Source: a virus
IMG/VR virus record: IMGVR_UViG_3300045988_163643
Span: 32,001-96,000 of that record
Length of the DNA stretch: 64,000 nucleotides
Direction: 5' to 3' (one strand)
Each line of letters opens with the position of its first letter. The stretch's first letter is position 1. Position numbers and translations under genes: made by a program. A model generated the notes under the pieces. The model had not been told where the DNA came from. It did no database searches and saw only the letters and a program-made list of their open reading frames with translations. Positions 12,911 through 63,654 of the stretch are shown one piece after another.

Positions 12911-14128
12911 CTACAATAAATCTACCTTGAATGGATGTAACCCTACACCCTCTATTCCATCAGCAAATGCTTTAGGAAATACTTTTTTAATAATCTGATA
13001 AGAACCATTTACATCAGCATTTATTTTTATACCTTTATTACTTACAAATAATCCCCTATGTCTTCTTCTATTCTTATTATAATTCTCCTTAATAGGCAAT
13101 TCATTATCTAAAAATGAAGTCCCACTTGTATAACTTTCTTCAGTAATAATAACTTGTATTCCAAATTCTTCTGCTTTATATTGTACCTTCTGAATAAAAC
13201 TATAATAAGGTATACTAATAAAATTTTGATTAACTTTTTTACTCATTTTACTATTTTGTTTCCAATTCTTATTATTACCTATGATAATAGTATTAATTTC
13301 ATTATTTCTACAATAATCAACTACAAATCTACTAGCTTTATGAATATAATCTTCAACTTTATTATTTCTCTTAAATGTTAATTCTCTCATTCTATTAGTA
13401 TAATCTAACTTATTCATTTTCTTTGCTATTGATTTATAATAAGCTATTTGCTTATTATAATATTGATTTATTGATTTTAGACCCTTACCATTTATTACTA
13501 ATGGGATTAATTCACAATTATTAGTTATAGTTACAAAGTTATCTAAACCTAAATCAATACCTATATATCTATCATTATCAATCAATTCTTTAACATCATC
13601 AATTTTATAAACTACTTCAGCAACAATATATTTGTCTTTAGGTATAAATCTCACTTGTTGTAAATTATTTACTTTAGATTTCAAATAAAAACCTTTGAAT
13701 GATTTAGGAAATTTAATTATACCTTTATTAATTTTACAATTTACATAAGTTAATATTAGAATATTTCTATCATTTTTAGATTTATACTTAGGTAATTTAG
13801 GTCTACCTAAGTATTTATTTGGGTTTTTATTATAATCTTTTATACTAGCGAAAAATGATTTCCAATTTTTATCTAATAATCTTAAACACTGTTGGCTTGT
13901 TGCAGAGGATGGCATATTTCTATAATCAAAATCTTTACCTTCTTGTTTTAATATTTTGTCTAATTCATTATATCTTAACCATTTATTGTTATTTATAAAT
14001 TCTTGTCTAATGATATAATTCGCATAATTATATAGATTTTTAGATTTATAACAAAATTCATCTAGTAGACTATAATATTTATTATTTTGTTTAATAATAT
14101 GTTTTTCAACTCTATTGATTTTTATCAC
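12911..14128 (-). CDS. tnpB: TnpB (IS200/IS605-family OrfB RNA-guided nuclease), zinc-finger-less, no tnpA
   Basis: 405-aa ORF with RuvC-I IGIDLGLDNF, RuvC-II ITEESYTSG and RuvC-III NADVNGSYQI. There is no CxxC..CxxC between II and III. The GTG start abuts the SD, so the exact start is uncertain. Confidence 0.8.
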   Translation of the reverse strand: MIKINRVEKHIIKQNNKYYSLLDEFCYKSKNLYNYANYIIRQEFINNNKWLRYNELDKILKQEGKDFDYRNMPSSATSQQCLRLLDKNWKSFFASIKDYNKNPNKYLGRPKLPKYKSKNDRNILILTYVNCKINKGIIKFPKSFKGFYLKSKVNNLQQVRFIPKDKYIVAEVVYKIDDVKELIDNDRYIGIDLGLDNFVTITNNCELIPLVINGKGLKSINQYYNKQIAYYKSIAKKMNKLDYTNRMRELTFKRNNKVEDYIHKASRFVVDYCRNNEINTIIIGNNKNWKQNSKMSKKVNQNFISIPYYSFIQKVQYKAEEFGIQVIITEESYTSGTSFLDNELPIKENYNKNRRRHRGLFVSNKGIKINADVNGSYQIIKKVFPKAFADGIEGVGLHPFKVDLL

Positions 14129-14939: not shown

Positions 14940-16589
14940 TTAAAATTTATTAGCTTTCCATTCTTCCCTCAATTCTTTTAATAAGTCTTTAAATTCGTCT
15001 TCTTCATGATAATTATTAAAATCCATATCAAAATCTATTTCATTTTGTTCGTTTTGAACAACTTTTCTACCTAATATTTCGTTTTCAACTTCTCGCATAA
15101 TTTCTAATTTGTCTTTCTTAAATTTATTTGTTTTAATTTTATCTAAATTTTTATAATCATGATTTTGTATAAGAAAAACTATTTCACTTATATCGTCCAA
15201 TTTATATCCTAATCTTAATAACACTTCCATACTTAAATAAGCAGATATTTTACTATTACCTCTTAAATCATTGAAACATAATGGTTTTCCACAATCATGC
15301 AATGCAATTGCCATTAATGTATTTTTATTTTTAGTTAATTTAGCACCTTCTTTTAATGATTTATACAAATGATTATTTAAATAATAATTTCCATCTTTAT
15401 CTATATGTTCATCACTCATATGAAAACCTATATTATTTTTTAATCCTACTTTTTTTAATAATCTATTAAATTCTATAAAATCAATGTTAGTAAACTTATT
15501 ATCAATATTGTATGTAATTTCATTATTGGAATTATCTACATATCTTATCTCATCAAATCCTTCATTTATATCAGGCAAATTAAAAAATCTTAATTTTTTA
15601 TAAATATACTCATAATCTTTATTATAATTCACTATACAATCATCAAAATTTTTATATATAAACACACCAATTATTTTAGATGCTAAACAACCTAATTTAT
15701 CGATTAATGATTTTCTATTGTGCTTATTCATATTACACATATCAATTATCACGTTTTTACATTGCATTAAAAGTTCACTAGCTTCAGAAATCATAGTTTG
15801 AAATAAATTTTCTTCTTTAACTCCTTGTTTTCTTAATTTATTAGCAGATATAATAAATATAGAGTCAAATTCAACTTCTAATTGTTTACAATATAATGTT
15901 TTACCCGAATTAGGAAGTCCTGTTAATATAAATAATTGTCTTTTATTAGCATAAACATTAGATAACTTTTTTAACGCCTTTTGCTCTAATCTAGTAACGT
16001 GACTTCTATCTACACCTAATAAAGTAGCTACTTCTTGTTGAGTAGGAAAATTTTCTCCATATCTTAAATTTATAACTTTTTGTTCAGCGTTAGTTAATAC
16101 TTCTTTCATACTTTCACGTATTTCTTTATTTAGAAGATTATTTTCAGCAGATTCTTGAACATTTATTTTTTCATCAAAAAGACAATCTTCTATAACAACC
16201 GAGTCATCATCTTTTTTGGTTTCTATTGTGGTATTCATACTACACTCTTTATATTTAGCTCTTTTCACATAATTAGCAGTACGCAAAACCATTCTTAGTT
16301 CATTAGAAACACACGTTGCTAAATATGTACTCCAATTTGTATCTCCCAATATATCATATGTGTCTACAGCTTTTAACAACCCTATCATTCCAGTTTGTAT
16401 AAAATCTTCCCTATCTTGTTCATTCAATACAAATTTATTAACTATCTTAGATACTAATTTTGTATTATGTAAAATTATGTTATCCCTAATTTCTTTTGAC
16501 CCAGTTTCATTATATTCTTTTAACAAATCCATCATTTCATCTTTAGTTAAATTTTTATATTCAAACAAGTCTTTATTCAATTTAATCAT
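14940..16589 (-). CDS. sigma-70-family factor fused to a P-loop (polynucleotide-kinase-like) domain and an HD phosphohydrolase domain
   Basis: Track ORF is 14940..16691. I moved the start to ATG 16589 (AAAGGGGA SD). Sigma regions 2-4: DFIQTGMIGLLKAVDTYD and QQEVATLLGVDRSHVTRLEQKALKKL. Then LFILTGLPNSGKT and VIIDMCN. Then FHMSDEH, ALHDCGKP, QNHD. Confidence 0.8.
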   Translation of the reverse strand: MIKLNKDLFEYKNLTKDEMMDLLKEYNETGSKEIRDNIILHNTKLVSKIVNKFVLNEQDREDFIQTGMIGLLKAVDTYDILGDTNWSTYLATCVSNELRMVLRTANYVKRAKYKECSMNTTIETKKDDDSVVIEDCLFDEKINVQESAENNLLNKEIRESMKEVLTNAEQKVINLRYGENFPTQQEVATLLGVDRSHVTRLEQKALKKLSNVYANKRQLFILTGLPNSGKTLYCKQLEVEFDSIFIISANKLRKQGVKEENLFQTMISEASELLMQCKNVIIDMCNMNKHNRKSLIDKLGCLASKIIGVFIYKNFDDCIVNYNKDYEYIYKKLRFFNLPDINEGFDEIRYVDNSNNEITYNIDNKFTNIDFIEFNRLLKKVGLKNNIGFHMSDEHIDKDGNYYLNNHLYKSLKEGAKLTKNKNTLMAIALHDCGKPLCFNDLRGNSKISAYLSMEVLLRLGYKLDDISEIVFLIQNHDYKNLDKIKTNKFKKDKLEIMREVENEILGRKVVQNEQNEIDFDMDFNNYHEEDEFKDLLKELREEWKANKF

Positions 16590-16680
16590 CCCCTTTACAC
16601 TTATAACATATTTTTTTAATAAATAATTTAAGCATATTATAAATAGAATAGCAATTTTACTATTATTACTTCTATTACAA

Positions 16681-18282
16681 TTAATTTTCATAGAAAACTT
16701 TATATAATTTATATGTTTCTATTAAATCACGTTTACTAATTATTTCCATTGGACTATGCATGCCTAATGTAGACACTCCAGCATCCATTGTCTCCATACC
16801 TCTTATTCCAAAGAACATAGCAACCGTTCCCCCACCGCCTTCACTAACTTTAACTGTATCAACTTGATATTTCACATCATTATCAATACATAAATCTTTT
16901 ATATATTCTCTCATTTCTATACTTGCATCATTTCCTCTTTTTAATCCAGTAAATGGCACTAAGGCAACACCATTGCCACATACTGCTTTTGCACTATCTT
17001 CAAAATGACTACTATAATTACTATCAAATCCACCAGTTACATCTGCACTAATTACCTTTGTATTTCTCATAAATTCTCTAGCTAATAACATATTTCCATT
17101 TGCTAAAGTAAGGAATATATCATCTATAAATTGAGTTTCAGCACCACTCATTTGTCCACTTCCAGTTTCTTCATAAGCAGTAAATAAAGCTATCTTTGTT
17201 ATTTTATTAGGTTTACTAGTTAATATAGCTTCTAATTCAGCATAAGCACAACTCTTATCATCATGTCCATATCCCATTAATAAATCTTTATCTAATCCCA
17301 TTTCTAATGTTTTAAAATAAGGTACAAAACTTAAGTCAGCTAATTCAAAATTCTCTTTTGTTATTCCATATTCTTTTTCTAACATTTCAAATAGTTCTTC
17401 TTTATTTCCATTACTCATTCTTACTAATAATTTATCATAAGATAAGTCTTTCACTTCTTTTCTACCTTTTAGGTGAGGTAATAAACTAGTTATAGAAAAT
17501 AAATGTCCTTTTTCTCCAGTATTTATATATTTTATTTCATCATCTACTTTTATTTTCCCAACCATTACAAATGGTCTATCTAACCATAATTGTGGTATTA
17601 TTCCACCATATGGTTGTGTTTTTATAAAAGTACCATCATCATTAGATACAATTGGATTACCTACTATAACATCTAATCTAGGACTATCAATATGACTTAC
17701 TATTAAATTAGCACCTTTTGATATGTCCTCGCCTATTTCTATTAAAGCTATCAATTTATCTCTAAATTCAAATATAACCTTATCTCCTACATTAAAGTAT
17801 TTTGAATGATTATAAGATTTATATCCTACATCTTCTGCTTTATCCTTTATATATTTTAATACTTGTGTTTCATGCAATCCTTCTTCTAATAAATATTTAT
17901 ATTCATCTATAAAATTATCTTCTTCATTATTATCTTGTGTTTTATACAATATTTTTCCTAATAAATATTTTACTTCTTCATCAATTATTTCTTTTAAGGT
18001 ATCATATTTTATATCAGGTGAACATTTTGAATATACAACATTATCTCTAAATATTATTTTTGTTCTTGATTCTTTAGCTACAATAGTACGAGTGTTTAAG
18101 TCATAAATCTTTTTCCATTGAGTTGGTAATTCTTTTCCATTCACCCAATGATAACCTAATTCTTCTAATGATATTAACACTTGTTCAATAATTTCTTTAT
18201 CATTGTTGACTTCAATTATAATTTGTTTATCATTTTTTTCACTTAATTCTTCTATTAAATTTGTTAGTCTTTTTATACTCAT
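16681..18282 (-). CDS. M18-family aminopeptidase with extra N-terminal domain
   Basis: ATG 18282 is 8 nt after AAAGGAGAG. Motifs VSHIDSPRLDV, GYGHDDKSCAYA, YEETGS, LGMHSPMEI. About 125 aa of unassigned N-terminus. Confidence 0.7.
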   Translation of the reverse strand: MSIKRLTNLIEELSEKNDKQIIIEVNNDKEIIEQVLISLEELGYHWVNGKELPTQWKKIYDLNTRTIVAKESRTKIIFRDNVVYSKCSPDIKYDTLKEIIDEEVKYLLGKILYKTQDNNEEDNFIDEYKYLLEEGLHETQVLKYIKDKAEDVGYKSYNHSKYFNVGDKVIFEFRDKLIALIEIGEDISKGANLIVSHIDSPRLDVIVGNPIVSNDDGTFIKTQPYGGIIPQLWLDRPFVMVGKIKVDDEIKYINTGEKGHLFSITSLLPHLKGRKEVKDLSYDKLLVRMSNGNKEELFEMLEKEYGITKENFELADLSFVPYFKTLEMGLDKDLLMGYGHDDKSCAYAELEAILTSKPNKITKIALFTAYEETGSGQMSGAETQFIDDIFLTLANGNMLLAREFMRNTKVISADVTGGFDSNYSSHFEDSAKAVCGNGVALVPFTGLKRGNDASIEMREYIKDLCIDNDVKYQVDTVKVSEGGGGTVAMFFGIRGMETMDAGVSTLGMHSPMEIISKRDLIETYKLYKVFYEN

Positions 18283-18315
18283 ATTCATCTCTCCTTTATT
18301 AACTTATTTACTTAT

Positions 18316-25565: not shown

Positions 25566-26426
25566 TTATATTTTTCTTTTTAGATTATATACAGAATATA
25601 CATTTGCTTTTATATTCATATTATTTAATAAACCTTTGATTTGTTTTTCACTTAATTCAATTCCAGTTTCAAGTTCAAAGTTTTTGATTTTATCTGCAAC
25701 ATAAGAATTATATAAAGAAGTAGTTGATATTCCTTCAACATCTATTCTTCTTAATATTCTATTTATTTTATCTCTACCTGCATTTTCTTTAATCTTATCT
25801 AATCCGTCATTATTAAATTTATTTTTTCTATTTTTCCATAGATATGAATTATTTTCATTATAGTAGTAGTAATCATAATTACTTTTTTCTTTAACATACA
25901 TTTTATATCCACGTTCTTTGGATGCTTTATCAATTATTCCCATAGTATAATCATCTAAAGTTATAGTTTTATCTTCTAATTTTATTTCATTTCTATCAAC
26001 ATTAATATCATTCATTTTTATATTAATGATTTCTTCACCTTTTAATCCATTTCTTAATAATAGTACTATAGCTTTATCTAAATAATTTTCAAATATATTA
26101 ACACCCATTATAACTTCTTCATAAGGGATATATCTTAATGTTCCATTTTCTATATCTAATAAATCATTTTTATTTATATCTCTATATACTTTATTTCCTA
26201 TAAAGATTAAATATTTCTTTAATAAACTCCATTTAACTGCTAATGTATTATATTTTCTACAGTCTAAAGAAGATAACATATTTAAACAATCTTCTTTACT
26301 CCAATCTTCTATTGTTCTGTTTATTGTTGTTTCATGTGCTTCTATATTTTTGAACAATGTAATATATGATTTTCTAGTACTTTCACTCATTTCTTTTTCT
26401 TTTAAAAATCTACTTATATTATTCAT
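25566..26426 (-). CDS. tyrosine-recombinase-fold protein lacking the H-x-x-R and His catalytic residues
   Basis: 286-aa ORF with SAM-like N-domain (KWSLLKKYLIFIGNK) and LLLRNGL (Arg I kept). ISTTSLYNSYV stands where HxLRH is expected. Confidence 0.6.
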   Translation of the reverse strand: MNNISRFLKEKEMSESTRKSYITLFKNIEAHETTINRTIEDWSKEDCLNMLSSLDCRKYNTLAVKWSLLKKYLIFIGNKVYRDINKNDLLDIENGTLRYIPYEEVIMGVNIFENYLDKAIVLLLRNGLKGEEIINIKMNDINVDRNEIKLEDKTITLDDYTMGIIDKASKERGYKMYVKEKSNYDYYYYNENNSYLWKNRKNKFNNDGLDKIKENAGRDKINRILRRIDVEGISTTSLYNSYVADKIKNFELETGIELSEKQIKGLLNNMNIKANVYSVYNLKRKI

Positions 26427-26443
26427 AACATTCTCTCCTTTTA

Positions 26444-27325
26444 TTAATTATTTGCCTTTTGTTTGGTCATATTTCTAATATCATAAACATTTTTAGTGAT
26501 ACCAAATTCATATTTTAAATAATCCCTTAATTCACTTTGAGTTAAATTTCTTTCTATTTTATGTTGATGTTCAATTACTTTATCAACTACATGACTAAGG
26601 GTAAGGTTACTTAATATGATAGTGTTATCATTTAATTCTTCTTTTATTTTTTGAAGTCTACCTCTCATGCCACTTATTTTTAAGTGTGATAATCCATCAT
26701 TAGTCCATTTAGTTCTTCTAGTCTTAAATAAATATTCACTATCCATATTATATACTATTATTTTTTCATAACTTCCTAATGCTACATATTCTTTTTCTTC
26801 TGTTGCTCTTTTAACTAGATACATTGTATAGTCGTCTATTTTCTTATTATATATCATATTTCTTTTAAAATCAATATCTTTTACTTTTAATTTTACTAAA
26901 TCTTCTGCTTCAAATTTCATTCCTATACCATTTCTAGCTAAAAACAATAAAGCTTTATCAGAATAGTTTTCTAATTTGCTAACTAATTTTATTAAATCTT
27001 CTTTATAAATATATCTTTTTTCTTCATATTCTTTATTGATTTCTATGATTTTATTCAAATCTTTTTTTGTAATTAATTTTATATTTTTATTTCCTATGAA
27101 GTCATAATATCTTTTTAATAAACTCCATTTGCTATTGATAGAATTATATGTACCCTTATCTATGCAATGATTAAGTAATAATGTAAATTCTTCTTTAGTT
27201 TCAATATCTTCTATGTTTTTATTCAATACTTTTTCTAATTCTGTCATTTTTGTAAATAAACCTTCATACATGTTATATGTATTTTCATTATTAATTGTTG
27301 CTAAAAATATTTCTCTACACTTCAT
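26444..27325 (-). CDS. paralogous degenerate tyrosine-recombinase-fold protein
   Basis: Track ORF is 26444..27334. ATG 27325 is 9 nt after AAGGAG. KWSLLKRYYDFIGNK, FLARNGI, and LTLSHVV in place of HxxR. Confidence 0.6.
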   Translation of the reverse strand: MKCREIFLATINNENTYNMYEGLFTKMTELEKVLNKNIEDIETKEEFTLLLNHCIDKGTYNSINSKWSLLKRYYDFIGNKNIKLITKKDLNKIIEINKEYEEKRYIYKEDLIKLVSKLENYSDKALLFLARNGIGMKFEAEDLVKLKVKDIDFKRNMIYNKKIDDYTMYLVKRATEEKEYVALGSYEKIIVYNMDSEYLFKTRRTKWTNDGLSHLKISGMRGRLQKIKEELNDNTIILSNLTLSHVVDKVIEHQHKIERNLTQSELRDYLKYEFGITKNVYDIRNMTKQKANN

Positions 27326-27426
27326 ATATACCACTCCTTTTATATTTTATCTATATTATAGACAAATTTTAGAAGGGATATACAAAATGATAAAGATTTT
27401 TTTATTTTTTTATCTTATTTACTTAT

Positions 27427-27455
27427 ATTATACTATTGTTCTTATTAAAAGTCAA
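27427..27455 (-). promoter_or_regulatory. class I cassette promoter
   Basis: TTGACT-17-TATAAT. Drives the two degenerate recombinase genes. Confidence 0.65.
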
Positions 27456-27463
27456 TAAAAAAA

Positions 27464-27481
27464 GAGAGAAAATTTTCTCTC
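27464..27481 (-). terminator. cassette terminator
   Basis: GAGAGAAAATTTTCTCTC palindrome plus a U-run. Confidence 0.7.
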
Positions 27482-27491
27482 ATTTTAAAAT

Positions 27492-28424
27492 TTATAAATC
27501 AAATATATTTATTTTTTCCATAGATTCTTGTATATCCTTACGTTGTTGGATGTAGTATTTCATTGATGTATTGATTGTCGAGTGTCCAAGCGTATCCTTT
27601 ATTTCTTGTAAAGTGATATTTGGATTTTCTCCCATTTTTGTACCTATTGTATGTCTTACATTATGAAAATGAACTCTAGGAACTCCAGCTATGTCACAAC
27701 AGTCATACCAAATTTTTCTTATGCCTTGCGTTTTTAATTGATTAAAATTTCTATCTGTAAGCAAATATTCTCTATTTGGGTTATATGATACTAATTCTTT
27801 TATAAGTTCAACAACTTCATTATTACAATTTGTGCTACGACCAATACGACCCTTGTTACCTTTAGAACGCACCATTATTTTATTATTATCTTCTAATTTT
27901 AAATCTTCTATTTTTATTCTACTCATTTCTCCAATTCTTAATGCAGTTGAAAATACTAATTTTACAATTACTTTATTTCTTAAATTTATATAATTACCAT
28001 GACAATTAAATTCTTCTTTATCTGTTGCTTGTAATATTGCTCTTATAATATCGTCATTAAATGCTTTATCTCCTTTATAATCATTTTCCCCTTTTTCATT
28101 AATCTTAGGAAATCTATATAGGCAATTGTCTTTTAAAAATTCTTCATTGACTAGAAAATTATAAAAACTACTCATTTGTTTTATTTTTTTATTTATTGTT
28201 GCTATTGAAATATCATCTTCATCTTTTTGTTTATTAATCCAATTAAACCAAAACTCCTTATCCATATTAATGAATTCACTAACTTCATTTATTTTTTCAT
28301 CTTTAACAAATTTTTGTAGTGTACTAACATAACTTTTAATTGTAGCTTCGCTTTTGTTTAATAAATTTAAATATTTTACATATTTAAATACACAATTATC
28401 CATACTCATATTTTTATCTAACAC
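27492..28424 (-). CDS. tyrosine recombinase / integrase (XerC/D-like), catalytic residues intact
   Basis: FSTALRIGE (Arg I), HFHNVRHTIGT (HxxR), LGHSTINTSMKYY (His, Tyr). Start is GTG 28424 (9 nt after AAGGAG) or 28433/28409. Confidence 0.85.
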   Translation of the reverse strand: MLDKNMSMDNCVFKYVKYLNLLNKSEATIKSYVSTLQKFVKDEKINEVSEFINMDKEFWFNWINKQKDEDDISIATINKKIKQMSSFYNFLVNEEFLKDNCLYRFPKINEKGENDYKGDKAFNDDIIRAILQATDKEEFNCHGNYINLRNKVIVKLVFSTALRIGEMSRIKIEDLKLEDNNKIMVRSKGNKGRIGRSTNCNNEVVELIKELVSYNPNREYLLTDRNFNQLKTQGIRKIWYDCCDIAGVPRVHFHNVRHTIGTKMGENPNITLQEIKDTLGHSTINTSMKYYIQQRKDIQESMEKINIFDL

Positions 28425-28458
28425 ATCAACCACTCCTTTTATTTATTTATCTATAATA

Positions 28459-28487
28459 ATTATAACAGGTTATTTATATAGTGTCAA
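28459..28487 (-). promoter_or_regulatory. promoter of the intact integrase
   Basis: TTGACA-17-TATAAT. Confidence 0.6.
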
Positions 28488-54582: not shown

Positions 54583-55047
54583 TTAAAATCCCCCTTTTTT
54601 TAACAAACAAGGGATTTTATAATTCCTATACCTTTTCCTATAACTGAAAAGGAAAAAATCCTTTTCCGTTTTTTTTAGGAGGAGGGAACATATTTAATTA
54701 TATAATAGGATTTTTATCATTGACCTCCTATGCCCTTGTAAATAGTCAATGACTGTTAAGTACTAAAACCTAACTTTTGATTATTACCTTATAACCCTCT
54801 GAGCACTTTTCAAAAGTTCCGACTTAAAAAGTATGAGTTCGTAAGTACTTATTAGAATTAATCTAACAGTTTACCTATATAACCTTTGATAATAGGGTTT
54901 TTATCAAAAGCACCTTTTAAGTTTTCCCTTTTGCCAGTTACCTAAAAGTTGTAAGATAATGCTTAATTCTATCAGGTGATATATTAAGCTTCTATTATAT
55001 ACCCTAAGCGTATAGCTTAAGGATTTTTTATTTCTTTTATTACCTTA

Positions 55048-55076
55048 ATTGTATCAGGTCTTTTATTTAATGTCAA
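55048..55076 (-). promoter_or_regulatory. early leftward promoter P1 of a tandem triplet
   Basis: TTGACA-17-TACAAT with an A/T-rich upstream tract. Confidence 0.65.
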
Positions 55077-55150
55077 GTACTTTTTAAAAATCTTTTAAAA
55101 CTTTTTAAGTAGCTCCTAAGTTGTTTTCCTAAGTTGTTATTTATACTTAT

Positions 55151-55179
55151 ATATTATCATGTCTTTTATCTAATGTCAA
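55151..55179 (-). promoter_or_regulatory. early leftward promoter P2
   Basis: TTGACA-17-TAATAT. Part of a ~100-bp tandem unit. Confidence 0.6.
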
Positions 55180-55249
55180 CTATTTTTTTTAAAAAACTTT
55201 TAAAACTTTTTAAGTGCTTTCCTAAGTTGTTATTTATTTTATTAACTTA

Positions 55250-55278
55250 ATTGTATTTAACCTCTTATCTAATGTCAA
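55250..55278 (-). promoter_or_regulatory. early leftward promoter P3
   Basis: TTGACA-17-TACAAT. Part of a ~100-bp tandem unit. Confidence 0.65.
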
Positions 55279-55467
55279 CTATTTTTTTTATGTTTTTTTA
55301 TGTTTTTTGTATACATTAAAATGAATATTGTATTTTTTATATTGTATACATTATTTTGTATATTGTATTTTGAATAATGAATTTTGTATATTGTTTAATG
55401 TATACAGTATACCTATACTCTTTTATATTGATTTTCAAAATTCATATTTCTATTTTATTTTTTTCTA

Positions 55468-55569
55468 ATATTGCCGTGTGACGTGATATAAGGCAATTTA
55501 AGGATTTTCAGAGCAGTTACTGTATAATTTATTCAATTGATTAATATATCCTCTTATATTGCCTTATAT
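55468..55569. promoter_or_regulatory. ATTGCC boxes upstream of rightward gene 1
   Basis: ATATTGCC (55468-55475), inverted GGCAAT (55492-55497), CTCTTATATTGCCTTATAT (55551-55569). Confidence 0.4.
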
Positions 55570-55596
55570 GGATACATGAAAACTTTTAAAAAATTA

Positions 55597-55624
55597 TTGA
55601 CATTAAATAAAGTTATGCTATCAT
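55597..55624 (+). promoter_or_regulatory. rightward promoter of 55668..55865
   Basis: TTGACA-16-TATCAT. Confidence 0.5.
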
Positions 55625-55667
55625 TATATTAAATATTAATAAAATTAAATAAAGGTGGTTGATTGAA

Positions 55668-55865
55668 TTGAAGAAATATAGTATAGAAATAAAAGGCAAT
55701 ATATGGACAAGAGAATTAATTATAAATATATGCAGGGAAAAATCAATTAAATATAATGTAACAGAGTTATTAAGTGGATTAAAATATTGTATGCAATTAA
55801 ATGATTTAGGCTTTTGGGACTATCATTATTTCAATAGACTTAAAAAAATAGAAGAGAAAAAATAG
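55668..55865 (+). CDS. small rightward gene (65 aa), hypothetical
   Basis: Track ORF is 55659..55865. TTG 55668 is 9 nt after AAAGGTGG. Own promoter 55597-55624 and terminator 55863-55890. Confidence 0.45.
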   Translation: MKKYSIEIKGNIWTRELIINICREKSIKYNVTELLSGLKYCMQLNDLGFWDYHYFNRLKKIEEKK

Positions 55866-55890
55866 TAGAGACTGCTCTGCTATTTTTTTT
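55863..55890 (+). terminator. terminator of 55668..55865
   Basis: TAGTAGAG-actg-CTCTGCTA (one G-U pair) plus T8. Confidence 0.6.
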
Positions 55891-55898
55891 ATTGTATA

Positions 55899-55916
55899 TA
55901 TGAATAACTGTTCATA
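55899..55916. promoter_or_regulatory. 18-bp palindromic operator, LexA(Cheo)-box-like core
   Basis: TATGAATAACTGTTCATA with core GAAT-AACT-GTTC. Confidence 0.5.
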
Positions 55917-56141
55917 TGTTTATATGTTTAATTGTATGCAATATACTATATAATGCATCATGTATACAATATAATATATCATGTATTGTTTATTATGTAT
56001 AGTGTATAATGTATGCAATATTATGCATATTGTATCTTGTATGCAATATATAATATACTGTATGTAATATTATGTATATTGTATTATATTAGTTAACTTG
56101 TAAACTATTATCATATTGATAATAAATAATACTTGACAAAT

Positions 56142-56153
56142 AAACAGTTGTTC
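56142..56153. promoter_or_regulatory. Cheo-box-like site (11/12)
   Basis: Reverse complement reads GAAC-AACT-GTTT. Sits just downstream of TTGACA 56133-56138. Confidence 0.35.
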
Positions 56154-56529
56154 TGTAATCGAACGTAGCATATTTTATAATGTTTGTCAACAGTTATTTT
56201 TAGCTAAAAAGTTTAGTATAAGTAAACAATGCAAGTGTGAAACCATTGAAAATACTATATTATCATATTGATAAATTTACAAATACTAAGAAAAAATCAT
56301 GACCCATTTAAATCGATTCTAAGAGGGCGAACAAAATCCCTCTTTATAGTTAATCCTTTATATGAAGTCACTCTATACAGAGCTTTAAAATCGACGGTAA
56401 AAGGTCGGTATATATTTTTAAAAAGGTGACTATACATTTTATTGTATGTAATATATTGTATACAATTTATTATCATAATGATAATATATGAATAGATATT
56501 CAGGTATTCATATATAGAATTGTATAACA

Positions 56530-56547
56530 TATGAATAACTGTTCATA
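56530..56547. promoter_or_regulatory. 18-bp palindromic operator
   Basis: TATGAATAACTGTTCATA. About 21 nt are identical to site 55899 with its flanks. Confidence 0.5.
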
Positions 56548-56571
56548 TGTTTAATTATTCAATCGTATTAG

Positions 56572-56599
56572 TTGATTTGTGAACTACTATCAATATGAT
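56572..56599 (+). promoter_or_regulatory. candidate rightward promoter followed by palindromic operator 56604-56621
   Basis: TTGATT-16-TATGAT. Confidence 0.4.
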
Positions 56600-56603
56600 A
56601 ACA

Positions 56604-56621
56604 TATGAGTGATTGTTCATA
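56604..56621. promoter_or_regulatory. 18-bp palindromic operator (variant)
   Basis: TATGAGTGATTGTTCATA. Confidence 0.45.
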
Positions 56622-56662
56622 TAATATGTATAATGTATACAATATAATGTACTATGTATACG

Positions 56663-56680
56663 TATGAGTAACTGTTCATA
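56663..56680. promoter_or_regulatory. 18-bp palindromic operator (variant)
   Basis: TATGAGTAACTGTTCATA. Confidence 0.45.
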
Positions 56681-56717
56681 TATTCATATATATACTGTAT
56701 AGTGTATAATGTTTATT

Positions 56718-56778
56718 GTATACAATATAATATACTATGTATGATATATTATGTATGTTGTACTATGTATACAATATA
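56718..56778. repeat. 61-bp direct repeat, copy 1
   Basis: GTATACAATATAAT..GTATACAATATA. 59/61 identical to 56837-56897. Confidence 0.85.
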
Positions 56779-56836
56779 ATGTATAGTGTACTATGTACTA
56801 TGTATGGTGCATGATATGTAGTGTACTATGTATGGT

Positions 56837-56897
56837 GTATACAATATAATGTACTATGTATGATATACTATGTATGTTGTACTATGTATACAATATA
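56837..56897. repeat. 61-bp direct repeat, copy 2
   Basis: See 56718-56778. Confidence 0.85.
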
Positions 56898-56898
56898 G

Positions 56899-56926
56899 TT
56901 GATAAGTGAACTATTATCAATATGAT
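56899..56926 (+). promoter_or_regulatory. candidate rightward promoter followed by palindromic operator 56931-56948
   Basis: TTGATA-16-TATGAT. Copy of the 56572 unit. Confidence 0.4.
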
Positions 56927-56930
56927 AACA

Positions 56931-56948
56931 TATGAGTTACTGTTCATA
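56931..56948. promoter_or_regulatory. 18-bp palindromic operator (variant)
   Basis: TATGAGTTACTGTTCATA. Confidence 0.45.
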
Positions 56949-56966
56949 CGTTCATATGATAGTATG

Positions 56967-56984
56967 ATAGAACAACTGTTCCTA
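56967..56984. promoter_or_regulatory. perfect GAAC-N4-GTTC (Cheo/LexA-box core)
   Basis: ATAGAACAACTGTTCCTA with the core at 56970-56981. Confidence 0.5.
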
Positions 56985-57094
56985 TGATGTTCTATGTTAG
57001 TAGAACATATGGTACAATAATCGAACTGCATAGAATTGATTGTAAGGCGTTTGCGTGATGTTCTTCTTATGTTACATCGTTGATAGTGTTCCTT

Positions 57095-57117
57095 CTCTTA
57101 TATTGCCTTGTATTGCC
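57095..57117. promoter_or_regulatory. ATTGCC boxes upstream of rightward gene 2
   Basis: CTCTTATATTGCCTTGTATTGCC, two direct TATTGCC. Confidence 0.4.
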
Positions 57118-57173
57118 TCATAAGGTTACATTGAAAAAATTAGTGTATTAGAGAAAAAATTTTCATAGGATTG

Positions 57174-57202
57174 TTGACACGGAAAAGGGTAACTGCTATA
57201 AT
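57174..57202 (+). promoter_or_regulatory. rightward promoter of 57240..57401
   Basis: Perfect TTGACA-17-TATAAT. Confidence 0.7.
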
Positions 57203-57239
57203 TATGTTAATAAAAGATAAATAAAAGGGAGTTGATAGT

Positions 57240-57401
57240 ATGAAGAAGTTATTATTTGTTTTGGTGATTTTAGGAGTTATGGTGATTTTTAAGGACTGCT
57301 TATTAATAGGTTTAATGGATATTGTTGATTTTGTGGGTAACTTGTTTAACTTGAATACCGTTGTATTAATTGACTTCTTAAATAATTTATATTATTTATA
57401 A
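57240..57401 (+). CDS. small rightward hydrophobic protein (53 aa)
   Basis: Hand-translated MKKLLFVLVILGVMVIFKDCLLIGLMDIVDFVGNLFNLNTVVLIDFLNNLYYL. AAAAGGGAG SD, perfect TTGACA-17-TATAAT promoter, 13-bp-stem terminator. Confidence 0.55.
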   Translation: MKKLLFVLVILGVMVIFKDCLLIGLMDIVDFVGNLFNLNTVVLIDFLNNLYYL

Positions 57402-57405
57402 GAGG

Positions 57406-57443
57406 AATAAGTGGGATATATTTTATCCCACTTATTTTTTTAT
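57406..57443 (+). terminator. terminator of 57240..57401
   Basis: 13-bp stem AATAAGTGGGATA/TATCCCACTTATT plus T7. Confidence 0.8.
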
Positions 57444-57688
57444 GAAATATGCTCAGGTGATTTTATGTATATTGTATGGTGTGTGGTGAATAGTGTATAC
57501 AGTATTTTTTATTATGTATAATGTATTGTTTATTGTATTGTATATTGTATTATGTATTGTATTATGTTTATTGTATAATGTATTGTATAATGTATAATGT
57601 ATATTATGTATATATGGTGATATAAAAGAATTTTATATATTTTTATAAAATATTATATTTTAAAAAGCCAGTGCTCTGTATAAAATTT

Positions 57689-57750
57689 TAGGGAATTTTG
57701 TGGGGAATTTTAGGGAATTTTAGGGAATTTTAAGGATTTTATAGGGGGAC
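57689..57750. repeat. 10-bp iteron array TAGGGAATTT
   Basis: GGGAA starts at 57691, 57703, 57713 and 57723, with degenerate units at 57733 and 57744 (spacing 12, 10, 10, 10, 11). Confidence 0.8.
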
Positions 57751-57780
57751 TCTGAAAATTTTGTGGGATATATAATAGGG

Positions 57781-57803
57781 GGTGGGTCGGGAAAAATCCC
57801 ACC
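57781..57803. repeat. GC-rich hairpin/IR
   Basis: GGTGGG-tcgggaaaaat-CCCACC. Confidence 0.7.
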
Positions 57804-57832
57804 AAGGATTTTATATGTACAGGATTTTAAAA

Positions 57833-57853
57833 AACAGTTCTTAGAGAACTATT
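57833..57853. repeat. palindrome sharing the AACAGTTCT half-site with IR 40476-40561
   Basis: AACAGTTCT-TAG-AGAACTATT. Confidence 0.7.
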
Positions 57854-58409
57854 TACAAATTCGACACGAAGGGGGTAGTTTATGTATAATTCGACAAAAT
57901 TCTACACAAATATGAGTCTAGTCCCTTTATCTACACACTATTAAATTTCATCAAAATATTATTAAATTTCACTAATATTTCATCAATATTAAATTTACAA
58001 GATTAATCATATATAAAAATAATACTCTAAAACGCACTATAAAAATACATCACATTGTATACACAACATTGTATACACGATTGTACATTACCACACCACC
58101 ATCCATACACCACCTATTCCCCTATAACAAGCAATGAAATAAAAAGGAGGGGGGTACTTTATGATAATATCAATTATCAAATCAATAATATCACTTCCCC
58201 TTATATACACTATCCCAATAAAATCCAATAAAAATAACTTAAAAATAACTATAAAAAACGTACTATTTTAAATCAATTTCAGTATATTTTTAATCAAAAA
58301 CATACCATTTTCGACCAATTTTGTTACATTTTTGTACCATTTTAACCTAAAATAATCATAAAATATACGATATACCATATAAAAAGTAATGTATCAAAAT
58401 CATATAAAG

Positions 58410-58454
58410 TTATCCACAATTTCAACAAAGTTATCCACAGAATAATGTGGATTA
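58410..58454. promoter_or_regulatory. DnaA-box cluster
   Basis: Perfect TTATCCACA at 58410-58418 and at 58431-58439. Inverted TGTGGATTA (8/9) at 58446-58454. Confidence 0.6.
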
Positions 58455-58681
58455 AAAATAACGATAAATCACGAAAATATTAATATGTCTATTTTTATAA
58501 TCCCTCAAATCTCATTTTTTAAAGGTAAATAAAAAAAATGTACGGTTAACCGAATAAGAAAAAATCCTACAAAAAATACATGGTTAACCGTACTCAAGAA
58601 ATTAAAACAAATAAAATACATGATTAATGATATATAAAAACGATATAACATTATTGATGCTTAAAAAGAGTAAAAAAATAA

Positions 58682-58699
58682 CCTACTTATAATAGTAGG
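58682..58699 (-). terminator. terminator of the late (tail-fibre) operon
   Basis: CCTACT-tataat-AGTAGG followed by AUUUUUUU on the minus strand, about 50 nt after the stop at 58750. Confidence 0.55.
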
Positions 58700-58749
58700 C
58701 TATCTTAATTTATCTTTTTTCTTACGCAATTGATTCATATTGTGTAAAT

Positions 58750-61700
58750 TTATTCACTTGTTGTAAAATCACCTGTTCCTAAATTATTATAATAAATCTT
58801 ATTTACAGTATCATACATACAAATAACATTAGCTTTAGTCTTTACAGGTATTAAGTCTAATATCTGTTGCCCATTTCTAGTTATTGTACAAGCATATAAT
58901 TTCATTGCACATTTTGTACTATTTTCACAACTTCCATTACTTGAATGTTGTCCGAATAAATATAAAGATAGTGTATTGTTGTCATTAAGTAATTGACAGT
59001 TATAAGTTTGACCATTGAATGATATTACTCTATTATTTAATGAATACTCATCAATATCATTAGAAATAGTTTCATCATAAGTGTTTGTGCTTACCATATC
59101 AATTCTATATTTATTATTAATAACTACTAATTGGCATCCCTGGTTCTCAAGACCATTACCATAAGCATCACCAAAAGGTATTGACGTTTTTATAAAGTTT
59201 AAAGGTTTAAATTTCACATACAAGCTATCTGTGTCAAAATTCAAAGTAACTCCAGTATCTATATATTGATTTCCATCACTTTGAATATAATTTAATTGAG
59301 TAAAATCATCTGATGTAATAGTACTTTTACAAGACACATTTATTACTATATCTCCGGTAACATTATTTATATTAATATTTCCTTGTGAATAAACTGTACT
59401 TGTAATATCAGTTCCACCCATAGTTACTGTTACTGTGTCATAAGTGCATCCACTGACAGGTGTGATTGTTGCACTATAAGACCCCCCTATTTTACAATAA
59501 GTACTATTGTTACTTGTTGTACATTTATTTAAAGTATTAACTACTTTTGCAAAAGTACCGTTTTTACTTGTTTCATATAAATACATTTTATTTAATTCTT
59601 CACTAGTTAAAACCCTATTATATATTTCATGTGAATAATAAATAAAGTTTACCCCTTCTCCTATTTTACCAATTATAAAATCAAGAGTGTTATCTGTAGT
59701 TAATGAATATCTATCATTTGTTCCTTCGTATTTTAATTCGCCATTCACATACACTTTACCACTATTCCCTTGTCTAGTCATTGCAATACTCATAAATCTA
59801 TCATATTTCATATCGCTTAAAGGATTATTACCCTCGTTTTCTCCATTTATGAACACAGGAGAAGTGACGCCGGTTTGCATAGCTTTCAATGACCATCCTG
59901 ATTCCGAAGCAGATTGATTAGCTCTTTTACCACATATAATGTGAGTAGCATTACTAAAACCGTGTACATTTATAATTACTGTAAAATCATTAGTTCCAAA
60001 ATTAAAATTATCACCAAAATTAATAGTTGCACTTGAATTTGTTAAATCTAAACCTCCCTTAGTCAATGTAGTTCCTATATAAGAACCTGTTCCAACAATT
60101 GAAGAATTTACTTTATCAACAATTTTATTTGTACTGAAATCATAATCTTCAACATCACAATGTCCTATTAGCCCTTGCGATACAAAACTATTAGATATTC
60201 CACTAACAGTAATATTACAAGTTGCACTTTGACTTCCACAAGTTGCAGTAATAGTACATTGTCCATTTGATGTAGGTGTCACAACTCCATTTTCAACAGT
60301 ACATATACCAGTAGGATTTGCTGACCAAATAACTTCGTCTGTAGTATCACTAGGAGTTAATGTAGCAGTTATCGTTTGTGGTGTTGTATCAGTAAATGTT
60401 AAAGTATTATTATTTAATACAATATTAGTACAAGGCTTATCTTCTTTAACTCCACTTACAGTAACATTACAAGTAGCAGTTTTAGTTCCACAAGTAGCAG
60501 TAATAGTACAATTTCCATCTTTAATCGGTGTTACAACACCTTTATTGACAGTTACTATACCAGTAGGAGTTACACTCCATGTAACTGTATCTGTTGTATT
60601 AGTAGGAGCTAATGTAGCGGTTAATGTTTGACTGTCTGTTGTTGTAAATGATAATGTTGTATTATTTAAAGTTATATTAGTACAAGCTACAGTTTCTTTA
60701 TATTTATTGTCTAAATAAGATATTCTTTGTTTAATCCACGTATACATACTATCAATATCATCTGTTTTATTAATTCTATTTGACCATTTACTTCTTTCTT
60801 TGGTTATATTTTCAGTCCCCCAAATTGATTGAAATGCTCTAAATTGATTTATAATCCTACTTACATTTATTGTCCCATTATTTCTTAATTCCCAATATCT
60901 TTGGCTTATTTCATTAAAATAATTACTATATAATTTATTCCATACTGGATTAGTCTTAGTATATTGACAATTAAGTAAATCTGTTGTAGGTTTGCTTGGA
61001 TGATAAGATATACCAGCATTTTGGAATAACCCAAATATTATGTCTAAATCATACCAGCACATATACCATTTTGACCCATCCCATGTAGCAATAGTCCAAT
61101 TGTTAATCATACTATCAGTTGCACAAGCTAAATCTGCAAATACCCAATAATTAATCGCATTTTGTAAAATTAGATGTTCCTCAAAATGTGCTTTAAAATC
61201 ACTATCACTTGAATTATTTATAAAATTTAGCAAATCAGTTAATTTACCTTGAATTTCTGATGTTTCAGTTCCATCACTTCTATATTCAAAATTAGATAAT
61301 ACTAGACTTCCTAAACCACTTCTATATACTATATTTGTTAATGGATTTTTTTTACTGTTCATTCCAAATAAATCATCATCCTGTTTTATATTAAGAGTAT
61401 AACACCCATTAAATTCTCCGTTTAAATATAAAATAACAGGCTTAGATTTTACTGTAATCGGAGCGTCTACTGGAAATGTAGTATTATCAAAATCCCACAC
61501 CATTTGTGCTCCTACAGAATTTCTTACCATTGAATAATCAGCATAATTACATTTTAAATGGTATGTGCTTGTAGCATAATCAAATATTTTTATTTTTTTC
61601 TTATTTCCTTCAACGTCTTTAAGTTTTAAACTTAAATTTTTATTAGGATATTGTAAACTTCCGCTACCTTGCCATGTGGTTGTTGATTTTCCTTGAAATA

Positions 61701-62010: not shown

Positions 62011-63654
62011 TTATTCTTTAGGAACAAAAGTTTTACTAACTCCATTGATAGTAACTACTAGTTCTCCACTTTCATTAAAGGTAAACTGAGGTAAATTAGA
62101 AACTTTATCATCTACGTATTTTTTATGGGCTGGATTATAATCATTGGTTACATCGTATTCATATGTATTATCTGGACTAATTGAACTTAATTTTGTTTGC
62201 ATTAATTTCCATTTACCATTTTCTTTAGTTATACTTAAATATTTGCAATAATTGTTTATACAATTCATATTAATTGCTATAAATGTATCACTTTTTAATT
62301 GAATACATATTGAAGTACTAAGCATACTACTCCAACCAATTGTATTTGACCCATCGTCAACAGTGAACCAAGTTCCATCATCATTAGGTGCTTTTAAACT
62401 AACTTTAAAGAATCCACTAACTATTGATGAATTTACTCTATAATTAGTTCCCTTTTCTAAAGTTGTTATATCCACATATCCTTTAGGTAGATTTGGGTCA
62501 TCATATAATATAGTAGGTGTTTTAAAATAATAATCTCTACTATCATCTACATATTTTTTAGTAGTTAAATCTTTATCTTCAGTAGGAGTACCTTCTTGAG
62601 ATAATTTACCTGCATACCAAGCATTACCTTGCCAGTCTAAAGTATGAGCATTAGCTCTTTTCTTATCACTACTACCATTACCTACTATATGTGCATATTT
62701 ACCTTCAGTATCTTCTATATTATATTTACCTTGTACATGCTGGTTGATAGAAGAAGCTTTAGTATATTTACCTTCTGCATGAGAATTTTCACCTGAAGCT
62801 GTTGTACCATTACCTTCTGCATGTGAATACAAACCTGAAGATATTGCATTAAAACCTTCTGCATGTGAACAATAACTTGAAGCTACTGTATACCAACCTT
62901 CAGCGTGTGAAGAAGTACCTGAAGCTTTTGTTTTATGACCTTCTGCATGTGAATTATCAGCTGATGCAGTTGTATATTTACCTTCTGCATGTGAACCATA
63001 ATCACCTGAAGCTGTTGTATTCAGACCTTCAGCATGTGAACAGTTACCTGAAGCTATTGTAAAACATCCCATAGCAGTAGAATATTCACCTATTTTACTA
63101 TTAGGGTCACGTCGTATACTTAAACTATTATAAATATCAACATCTTTTCCAAGTAATAATGTATTAAATTTATTAATAGATATTTCAAATAATTTAATTC
63201 CTCCAGTAAATACAGGTGGTTTATTATCATTAATTCTATTTAGTACCATTAATGCTACATTCTCATTATACTCTTCTGTTTTATCATAAAAAGTCTGTAC
63301 ATCCCCTCCACCTATATTATTAACAGTATCATTTATGCCAAAAAATTCCATAATTACTCTAGTTTTATTTTGCTTAGTTAATTCTTTAGTATATACTGAA
63401 TCTAATCTGTAACGTTTATTATTAATTTCAATAAAAAACAAAGTATCGTCTTTAATTGTAAAATTAGGAATTTCAATATACATAGATGTATCATCACTAG
63501 CTTGGCACTCAGCCCATGCTTTATTTAATTGGTCTACTGTTATATTTAATAGTGCAGTTTCTGATTTAATATATGGTAAATCGGTATTCTTTATATTATT
63601 TGATTCATTATTGTTGTTAATAATAAATCCAAATTTATTATCTTTATCAAACAT
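62011..63654 (-). CDS. tail fibre with YadA-head-like (Hep_Hag) SHAEG repeats
   Basis: 547-aa ORF with 7-8 repeats of xxSHAEGxxTxASx at 14-15-aa period (~62740-63050). Its N-terminus MFDKDNKFGFI is shared with 58750..61989. Confidence 0.75.
   Translation of the reverse strand: MFDKDNKFGFIINNNNESNNIKNTDLPYIKSETALLNITVDQLNKAWAECQASDDTSMYIEIPNFTIKDDTLFFIEINNKRYRLDSVYTKELTKQNKTRVIMEFFGINDTVNNIGGGDVQTFYDKTEEYNENVALMVLNRINDNKPPVFTGGIKLFEISINKFNTLLLGKDVDIYNSLSIRRDPNSKIGEYSTAMGCFTIASGNCSHAEGLNTTASGDYGSHAEGKYTTASADNSHAEGHKTKASGTSSHAEGWYTVASSYCSHAEGFNAISSGLYSHAEGNGTTASGENSHAEGKYTKASSINQHVQGKYNIEDTEGKYAHIVGNGSSDKKRANAHTLDWQGNAWYAGKLSQEGTPTEDKDLTTKKYVDDSRDYYFKTPTILYDDPNLPKGYVDITTLEKGTNYRVNSSIVSGFFKVSLKAPNDDGTWFTVDDGSNTIGWSSMLSTSICIQLKSDTFIAINMNCINNYCKYLSITKENGKWKLMQTKLSSISPDNTYEYDVTNDYNPAHKKYVDDKVSNLPQFTFNESGELVVTINGVSKTFVPKE

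Follow-up and report, generated by a model that had tools for sequence, protein, structure and literature searches.

A conserved cluster of 18-bp palindromes in a ~198-kb phage with a probably clostridial host: candidate operators of a phage-encoded regulator rather than LexA boxes

The DNA considered here (hereafter the window) is a stretch of 64,000 nucleotides, positions 32,001 to 96,000 of the IMG/VR virus record IMGVR_UViG_3300045988_163643, and the subject of this report is a cluster of 18-bp palindromes lying in a gap of about 4 kb with few genes (54600-58750), which is flanked by the end of a tail-fibre operon on one side and by early leftward promoters on the other. The stretch forms part of a metagenomic phage contig of 197.7 kb. 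The window has 22-28% G+C and almost all of its genes on the minus strand; they include genes for a DnaB-type helicase, an ATP-dependent DNA ligase, an AAA_24 protein, three sigma-70-like proteins, a TnpB and a CotH/Big_2 tail-fibre-like protein. The nearest relatives of the DnaB (31-36% identity) belong to large Clostridioides difficile phage-plasmids of the phiCD211 type, and the closest relatives of the TnpB (64-65% identity) to assorted Clostridia and other Firmicute metagenome-assembled genomes; on these two proteins the host is probably an AT-rich Firmicute of the clostridial type. An earlier note on this DNA had likened the core of the palindromes to the LexA (Cheo) box of the Gram-positive type and had suggested that either LexA or a phage repressor may bind there, and it is the LexA proposal, together with what might replace it, that we discuss below.

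The motif TATGARTNNNTGTTCATA has five exact matches in the window, all on the plus strand, for a mean of 0.10 in shuffled sequence (none of 100 shuffles reaches five), which bears out the number and positions of the copies as first described; allowing one mismatch reveals no further copy elsewhere in the 64 kb. A degenerate sixth member of the family, which we call site 1b, had escaped the earlier note, as had two neighbouring repeat families, the TATCA-N3-TGATA palindromes and the 7-bp (heptad) arrays (Table 1). The first 18 nucleotides of site 1b (56487-56504) read TATGAATAGATATTCAGG, and they are followed by an extra TATTCATA arm at 56505-56512; the start-to-start spacings from this site to site 5 are 43, 74, 59 and 268 bp. 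The description of the sites as 8-bp arms around a 2-bp spacer is only approximate: the dyad is perfect for TGA...TCA alone and strong for the outer TA/TA, whereas the inner 8 bp are conserved yet asymmetric. Given this asymmetry, the single orientation common to all copies and a T at +4 downstream that is invariant, the recognisable motif appears to extend over about 25 bp, with a conserved frame that, flanks included, can be written A.A-TATGA(A/G)T(A/G)A.T(G/A)TTCATA-..(T/A)T. A 2-bp centre excludes an RNA hairpin, and the symmetry, read directly from the sequence, thus points to recognition of double-stranded DNA. The half-sites also resemble the neighbouring heptad (TATGAAT versus TATGTAT).

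Table 1. Positions of the palindromes, of the elements around them and of the genes discussed in the text (window coordinates)
Feature	Position	Strand	Sequence or remark
Palindrome site 1	55899-55916	+	TATGAATAACTGTTCATA; immediately 3' of the terminator of the 65-amino-acid protein gene
Palindrome site 1b	56487-56512	+	TATGAATA-N10-TATTCATA
Palindrome site 2	56530-56547	+	TATGAATAACTGTTCATA
Palindrome site 3	56604-56621	+	TATGAGTGATTGTTCATA; 4 nt 3' of a -10-like TATGAT
Palindrome site 4	56663-56680	+	TATGAGTAACTGTTCATA; within a heptad array
Palindrome site 5	56931-56948	+	TATGAGTTACTGTTCATA; 4 nt 3' of a -10-like TATGAT
Promoter-like TTGATT-16-TATGAT	56572-56599	+	ends 4 nt before site 3
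Promoter-like TTGATA-16-TATGAT	56899-56926	+	ends 4 nt before site 5; duplicates the 56572 unit
Perfect Cheo box	56970-56981		GAACAACTGTTC (AGAAC-AACT-GTTCC); 1 nt 3' of a TATGAT hexamer
Clostridial-type LexA box	56142-56153	-	GAACAACTGTTT (plus strand AAACAGTTGTTC); exact GAAC-N4-GTTT
Most conserved non-coding block	56949-57022		68 of 74 columns invariant; dense in GAAC/GTTC
TATCA-N3-TGATA family	56109-56927		copies at 56109, 56261, 56471, 56588 and 56915
Heptad array ATGTATA	56626-56890	+	about 38 copies
Other heptad arrays (ATGTATA / TATAATG)	55325-55404, 55949-56085, 57510-57603		
Two tandem MrpR/SroF-like integrase-fold proteins	25566-26426, 26444-27334	-	probably non-catalytic
Bona fide tyrosine integrase	27492-28433	-	precedes the MrpR/SroF-like genes in what looks like one operon, with a promoter at 28487
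65-amino-acid protein gene	55668-55865	+	own TTGACA-16-TATCAT promoter (55597) and terminator
53-amino-acid hydrophobic peptide gene	57240-57401	+	TTGACA-17-TATAAT promoter (57174); terminator
Three tandem leftward early promoters	55048-55278	-	at 55278, 55179 and 55076; form TTGACATTA(G/A)ATAA...
DnaA-box trio	58410-58454		TTATCCACA twice, 21 bp apart, and inverted TAATCCACA (8/9)

Scanning IMG/VR for the motif and searching it with the flanking proteins yielded seven relatives with about 80-90% identity in the palindrome region (L078/L128, L070/L127, L125, L126, L129/L101 and L130 in our numbering), which make eight genomes with the window phage. Three contigs with identical proteins (L001-L003) show no difference in the gap (100% identity) and are not informative; the two flanking early proteins, used as queries for relatives with a divergent gap, retrieved only the same five IMG/VR contigs, and the sequences of a clade at 57% identity (L289-L292) stop short of their gap region. 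Among the eight genomes the architecture of the control region is kept as a whole. The 55 instances of the palindrome fall into 15 distinct sequences in which T1, T3, G4, A5, T7, T11, T14, C15 and A16 are invariant, and pairwise differences average 0.05-0.10 within the sites, compared with 0.12-0.18 in the heptad arrays next to them and 0.20 for the promoter of the 53-amino-acid peptide gene. Site 1b is present in all relatives, with 24 of its 26 columns invariant. Site 1 reads TATGAATAACTGCTCATA in five relatives, ending in CTGCTCATA (GTTC changed to GCTC), and site 2 reads TATGAATACTTATTCATA in seven (GTTC changed to ATTC), a perfect 8-2-8 palindrome that contains neither GAAC nor GTTC; the frame TATGA-N8-TCATA is kept in both cases. 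The relatives also carry one extra unit made of TATCAATATGATA and a palindrome, an added copy of the site 5 unit, and such a change in the number of whole units is typical of operator or iteron modules.

These replacements bear directly on the LexA label, since the bases that survive between orthologous palindromes are TATGA...TCATA and not those of GAAC/GTTC. As a yardstick we used a weight matrix built from 11 high-affinity LexA operators of C. difficile (PMC4234289). On this matrix the palindromes score 0.7-5.1 bits (ranks 238-1461 among 128,000 positions), below the roughly 10 bits of C. difficile operators that are bound unstably and well below the 13-20 bits of good ones. LexA needs a C at position 7, which is a T in all 55 instances, the left half is always GAAT, GAGT or GATT and never GAAC, and each palindrome of the window departs from GAAC-N4-GTTC/GTTT at one or two core positions. 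We conclude from these comparisons that the label does not hold for the palindromes, and we advise against annotating the repeated 18-mers as LexA boxes.

The situation is different for two sites that stand beside them, both of which the earlier note had also listed. The perfect GAAC-AACT-GTTC at 56970 is indeed present (the box as read in the window, directly 3' of the TATGAT hexamer, is AGAACAACTGTTCC). It is the window's sole GAAC-N4-GTTC, which taken alone is not significant, 15 of 100 shuffles giving at least one, but it matches the consensus exactly and scores 15.3 bits over the matrix span 56968-56983, rank 2-3 of 128,000. All 12 of its columns are invariant in the six aligned genomes, although this conservation cannot be attributed to the box itself because the surrounding block is invariant throughout. 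The site at 56142, presented as an 11/12 copy, exists too; it is not a degenerate copy, however, being an exact match on the minus strand to the clostridial form of the box (matrix span CAGAACAACTGTTTAT, 11.6 bits, rank 9 of 128,000). It occupies the 15-nt spacer between a TTGACA (56133) and a TGTAAT (TATAAT in four relatives), and the changes between genomes are confined to its N4 spacer. For GAAC-N4-GTTY in general, the window has five matches where 1.7 are expected, a number reached by 7 of 100 shuffles.

Both boxes lie in the part of the window that is densest in GAAC/GTTC tetramers, 55890-57110, with 14.8 per kb as against 3.6 in the rest, a fourfold difference. Nine of these words fall within the 160 bp of 56940-57100, and the conserved block there includes the inverted repeat ATGTTCTA-N6-TAGAACAT. 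About six positions in 55890-57110 show GAAC or GTTC in the window phage but GTTAAC, ATTC, GCTC or GTCC in the relatives, and conversely about two such words of the relatives have no counterpart in the window; the excess could reflect a gain of LexA half-sites specific to this lineage. By score and consensus the 56970 and 56142 sites qualify as LexA-type boxes, and it is plausible that LexA has an input to the control region through them and not through the 18-mers. Two further matches to the matrix were noted outside this region: AGGAACAAAAGTTTTA at 62020-62035 (15.6 bits), 31 nt upstream of the start of the CotH/Big_2 gene, and AGGAACAGGTGATTTT at 58765-58780 on the minus strand (12.8 bits).

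The position of the palindromes relative to promoter-like sequences is the second feature that calls for an explanation. The duplicated TTGAT(T/A)-16-TATGAT elements described earlier in front of two of the palindromes were found again, each ending 4 nt upstream of its palindrome, and together they form a 76-nt repeat with 79% identity. The -10 of the 56572 unit falls within the palindrome TATCAATATGATA; in the relatives this TATGAT is invariant and the -35 varies (TAAACA, TTGATA). No fewer than three sites fall at about +1 to +20 of rightward promoter-like sequences of the sigma-A type, or 4 nt after a -10. The palindromes are embedded in duplicated units (repeat families D5, D7 and D8). The second palindrome family, T(T)ATCA-N3-TGATA(A), is similarly concentrated, five of its six window copies lying in 56109-56927 where 0.35 would be expected. 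Two of its copies contain the -10 TATGAT of the promoter-like units.

As to what might bind the sites, the earlier note had seen no CI-like repressor in the window. A candidate phage repressor does exist there, since two MrpR/SroF-like homologues are encoded in tandem at 25566-27334. The Pfam family MrpR_N_CB is matched with 30.4 bits by the first (25566-26426) and 26.6 bits by the second (26444-27334), for a cut-off of 27, and an identical database protein carries precomputed matches to both MrpR_N_CB and MrpR_C_cat (PF22822, PF22823). In BLASTP against YopR of SPbeta the two proteins reach E = 1e-5 and 2e-6 over about 220 amino acids, and the top Foldseek matches in the PDB are YopR, MrpR and DNA-bound SroF (8bj6, 8a0a and 9rd5; E about 2e-5, obtained from a poor model). 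The Arg-I motif is replaced in both, with GLKGEEI and GIGMKFEAEDL where MrpR has GLAHSEL; alignments to the XerC-like 4a8e and to YopR show a K in place of the Arg-I of GLRxxEL in one protein and no counterpart of it in the other, the C-terminal residues not being reliably aligned. A tblastn search of phages with the MrpR-like protein gave no match. The same order of an integrase and two MrpR-like genes recurs in the 57%-identity clade mentioned above, which comes from pig-gut metagenomes. Taken together, the homologies suggest that 25566-28433 is a lysogeny module of the SPbeta type in a ~198-kb phage outside Bacillus.

The comparison with SPbeta-like phages can be carried further. MrpR of SPbeta recognises a repeated element of 15 bp, present at about ten promoters dispersed over the genome (PMC10516654); SroF of phi3T, a monomer, reads 24 of 26 bp, and SOS induction of phi3T depends on LexA at an SOS box upstream of the small antirepressor Sar/YopT (bioRxiv 10.1101/2025.11.27.690993). 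The window resembles these phages in having two MrpR/SroF-like proteins next to an integrase, a YopX-family gene (also present in the relatives, which have a YorF-family gene as well), a long (about 25 bp), asymmetric and uniformly oriented motif at promoters, and an SOS box after a -10-like hexamer; in our own reading of the SPbeta sequence, TATAAT is followed after 14 nt by AGAACGCACGTTCC upstream of yopT. The differences are nevertheless substantial. The 18-bp motif is unrelated to the SPbeta repeated element (SPBRE), which we derive as CAAATAC-AAAAAATATGTATAT, no Sar/YopT-like gene was recognised in the window, the distance between the LexA boxes and the MrpR-like genes is about 29 kb instead of a single open reading frame, the host is probably not a Bacillus, and the genome measures about 198 kb. 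The SPBRE core ATATGTATA looks like both the heptad and an arm of the palindrome; the window shows no enrichment of it (5 copies for 5.2 expected), and we keep it as a lead only. With an asymmetric promoter box, integrase-fold repressor genes and a separate SOS box all present, an SPbeta-like logic is in our opinion the most economical model.

We therefore favour the reading, mentioned as an alternative in the earlier note, that the palindromes would be operator-type sites for a DNA-binding protein encoded by the phage, acting on rightward promoters; the local clustering of the sites, their conservation, their place just after promoter-like sequences and the long, uniformly oriented motif speak for it, and we would put its probability at about one half. 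The MrpR/SroF-like proteins are the most concrete candidate binders. We infer binding, and repression as its outcome, along the following lines. The protein would occupy the 18-bp sites (about 25 bp with flanks) and so cover the starts of the rightward promoters at 56572 and 56899, and probably of weaker ones before sites 2 and 4; once bound, it would block initiation or promoter escape, and this would silence rightward transcription through the heptad arrays, the GAAC-rich block and the gene of the 53-amino-acid peptide, toward the DnaA-box region. By analogy with the SPbeta-like phages, LexA at the 56970 box and at the 56133 promoter would add an input from DNA damage, and if host LexA acts here at all we think it most likely does so on these two canonical boxes rather than on the 18-mers.

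Such an arrangement has familiar counterparts. In lambda (OR and OL), P22 and 434, multiple operators of 17-18 bp overlap promoters in an intergenic control region, and the C1 operators of P1, which control the promoter of the lytic replicon, are asymmetric. The window shares with all of these several sites of 17-18 bp at promoters of an intergenic control region. It differs from them in that no divergent repressor gene is adjacent, and in that six to seven sites are spread over 1 kb among heptad arrays and a second palindrome family.

Several points weigh against this reading and explain why we do not put its probability higher. No protein is tied to the sites by co-variation, and a different conserved box found at the early promoters, (A/T)ATAGTATAAA, is an equal or better candidate operator for a master repressor. 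Matches to the promoter consensus are no commoner than in shuffled sequence (50 for 46 expected, in DNA of 24% G+C). For the MrpR-like protein the predicted structure is of low quality (pLDDT 59, TM-score about 0.3 to MrpR), and the sites are clustered within 1.05 kb of the 64 kb where SPBRE copies are genome-wide. All eight genomes form one shallow clade, and the conservation is thus in part a matter of shared ancestry and recent duplication. Finally, sites and regulators were surveyed in 64 kb of a genome of about 198 kb.

Among the other explanations, the one that survives best, although we regard it as unlikely, is that the sites are replication or partition elements, recognised by an initiator or by a centromere-binding protein of a plasmid-like prophage. 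Clusters of palindromes of 16-18 bp are typical of type Ia centromeres, and the gap, poor in genes, contains several repeat families, with omega-like heptad arrays and two families of palindromes. The only perfect DnaA boxes of the window are 1.5 kb away, GC skew is positive in the 56001-58000 interval only, and the nearest relatives of the DnaB are, as said above, phage-plasmids. No gene for Rep, ParA or ParB was found in the 64 kb, however, and none of 185,000 reference genomes contained a prophage copy. In addition, the tight coupling of the sites to -10-like hexamers suggests a role in the control of transcription.

A somewhat less likely possibility is a composite switch, in which host sites have been co-opted, ArgR sensing arginine on those copies that look like ARG boxes and LexA sensing DNA damage on the canonical boxes, at the same promoters and beside an origin with DnaA boxes. 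In a related version the second MrpR/SroF-like paralogue would have evolved near-palindromic operators of its own, giving a two-repressor integrase-fold switch outside Bacillus; that each of the two paralogues has its own operator box is speculation.

The ARG-box component of this idea can also be taken separately, as the hypothesis that the palindromes serve host ArgR/AhrC, either as an arginine-dependent input to transcription or as sites for an architectural factor, as at cer of ColE1. The symmetric consensus of the family, TATGAATA-NN-TATTCATA, does fit the 18-bp ARG-box consensus TNTGAATWWWWATTCANW (quoted in PMC5291005), the fit being 17/18 in relatives, for site 2 and in some of them for site 4, and 16/18 for sites 1, 1b and 2 of the window; site 1b ends in ATTCAAG, like the Bacillus subtilis consensus, and the invariant T3, G4, A5, T7, T14, C15 and A16 are all specified positions of an ARG box. 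But this consensus is A+T-rich and is not enriched in the window (31 occurrences for 30.9 expected at up to two mismatches, none for 2.3 at up to one), and half the copies have three to four mismatches, among them sites 3 and 5, which are linked to promoters, and 5' of the relatives. The C at position 10 that is common in the palindromes is unusual in real ARG boxes, and a 16/18 match in phage P1 with this C10 (plus an unusual A7) failed to bind ArgR (PMC2409434). ARG boxes usually come in tandem pairs 2-3 bp apart (about 21 bp), an arrangement very different from the spacings given above, and the resemblance was noticed post hoc among many known motifs. We consider this hypothesis improbable.

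It is just as improbable, in our view, that the copies are simple by-products of recent duplication in a repeat-rich spacer, devoid of any binding function. The sites are embedded in the duplicated units, their half-sites look like the heptad and the eight genomes are closely related, all of which would be expected if this were so. It is harder to understand in this case why nine positions should be invariant in 55 instances while the neighbouring repeats diverge two- to three-fold faster, why orthologous changes keep or even improve the dyad, as at site 2, and why the distance of 4 nt to the -10 element is constant.

Lastly, host LexA might bind the 18-mers after all, alone or with the help of a cofactor that stabilises it on half-sites, like gp7 at dinBox1b of GIL01, a tectivirus of Bacillus thuringiensis, which would place lysogeny or early transcription under direct SOS control. 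In GIL01 the high-affinity LexA site is a near-match to CGAAC-N4-GTTCG, a lone half-site is bound weakly and gp7 stabilises this binding (PMC4551915); the two phages have in common Cheo-type boxes with additional half-sites just 3' of a phage promoter. Every copy in the window retains one intact GTTC half-site, sites 1 and 2 are a single base away from GAAC-N4-GTTC, and the copies lie next to the two canonical boxes in the stretch richest in GAAC/GTTC. On the other hand, the repeated 18-mers of the window do not match the GIL01 consensus and score as non-sites, and the GTTC half, as we have seen, is gone from site 1 in five genomes and from site 2 in seven. A T precedes GAAC in the palindromes, as it does in the unstable rplR and rpoB operators of C. 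difficile (PMC4234289), and the invariant outer T1, T3 and A16 are absent from any LexA consensus. The earlier note had suggested looking for a gp7-like co-repressor; we identified none, nor any homologue of gp1 or gp6, and the gp6 site of GIL01, GaCACAnnTGTGaC, is unrelated to the palindromes. On balance we regard binding of LexA to the 18-mers as very unlikely. A literature search with the half-site strings returned primers only. The sites cre, Rex, PrfA, Fur, chromosomal parS and dif/lox-type cores were dismissed by eye, since either their spacing or the invariant bases do not fit.

The remaining features of the gap may be described briefly. The heptad arrays, nearly all in one orientation, resemble both the arrays of heptads bound by the omega protein of pSM19035 and the core of SPBRE. 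The 65-amino-acid protein encoded upstream of site 1 has homologues restricted to the clade and no match in Pfam or PHROG, its best fold match in the PDB having E = 1.4; the AlphaFold model (pLDDT 77) consists of a beta-hairpin and three helices. This model disagrees with the ribbon-helix-helix fold that had been guessed by eye, and with no fold match and no similarity to YopT we also set aside the idea that this protein is the binder or a factor of the Sar/gp7 type. The gene for the 53-amino-acid peptide is located downstream of the palindromes and of the LexA box. After the 56133 promoter (TTGACA-15-T(G/A)(T/C)AAT) comes a conserved non-coding segment of 260 nt, up to 56425, with a weak terminator at its end. 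We rejected the possibility that 56166-56425 is a structured RNA, as covariation gives no support (term +0.13, with one compensatory pair), and also that its 53-codon open reading frame is a gene, because it is preceded by no ribosome-binding site and its changes are mostly non-synonymous; scans of the window with Rfam at the gathering threshold and for tRNAs gave no match.

On the minus strand, between 28487 and 55278, there are 17 consensus sigma-A promoters (TTGACA-17-TA.AAT), most of them with a terminator upstream, and most are directly followed by the conserved box (A/T)ATAGTATAAA already mentioned, which may represent either an operator or a conserved start of transcripts. On the other side of the palindromes, the two copies of TTATCCACA are the only perfect DnaA boxes of the window; the trio they form with the inverted box is kept in all relatives and adjoins repeats of the ACCATTTT type (58254-58343), which makes this region a possible replication origin. 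About six AATTTTAGGG repeats and a G-rich patch lie at 57684-57900, conspicuous in a genome of 24% G+C, and are kept in the relatives, a packaging or terminus signal being one possibility. Searches of the gap DNA against INPHARED phages, for near and for distant relatives, found no match, and the conserved block has no exact copy among 185,000 reference genomes. Elsewhere in the window the phage carries cargo that is odd for a phage, including an alpha-amylase-family gene (9349-10404), the TnpB (OrfB_IS605) gene (12911-14128), a sigma-70-like domain fused to a P-loop kinase-like region (14940-16691) and an M18 aminopeptidase (16681-18288).

The main practical result of this work is the correction of the LexA annotation for the 18-mers. 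The features that we think worth testing are the two LexA-type boxes, the MrpR-like genes and the DnaA-box trio. As far as can be judged from sequence comparison, the palindromes are probably the operator cluster of an SPbeta-type integrase-fold repressor system in an undescribed lineage of phages. If this is true, no new regulatory principle is added, but the region would act as the switch that controls a so far uncharacterised clade of ~200-kb phages, found in gut and rumen-type metagenomes, and the combination of MrpR/SroF with a separate LexA SOS box would reach from the SPbeta-like phages of Bacillus to a distant lineage of clostridial type.

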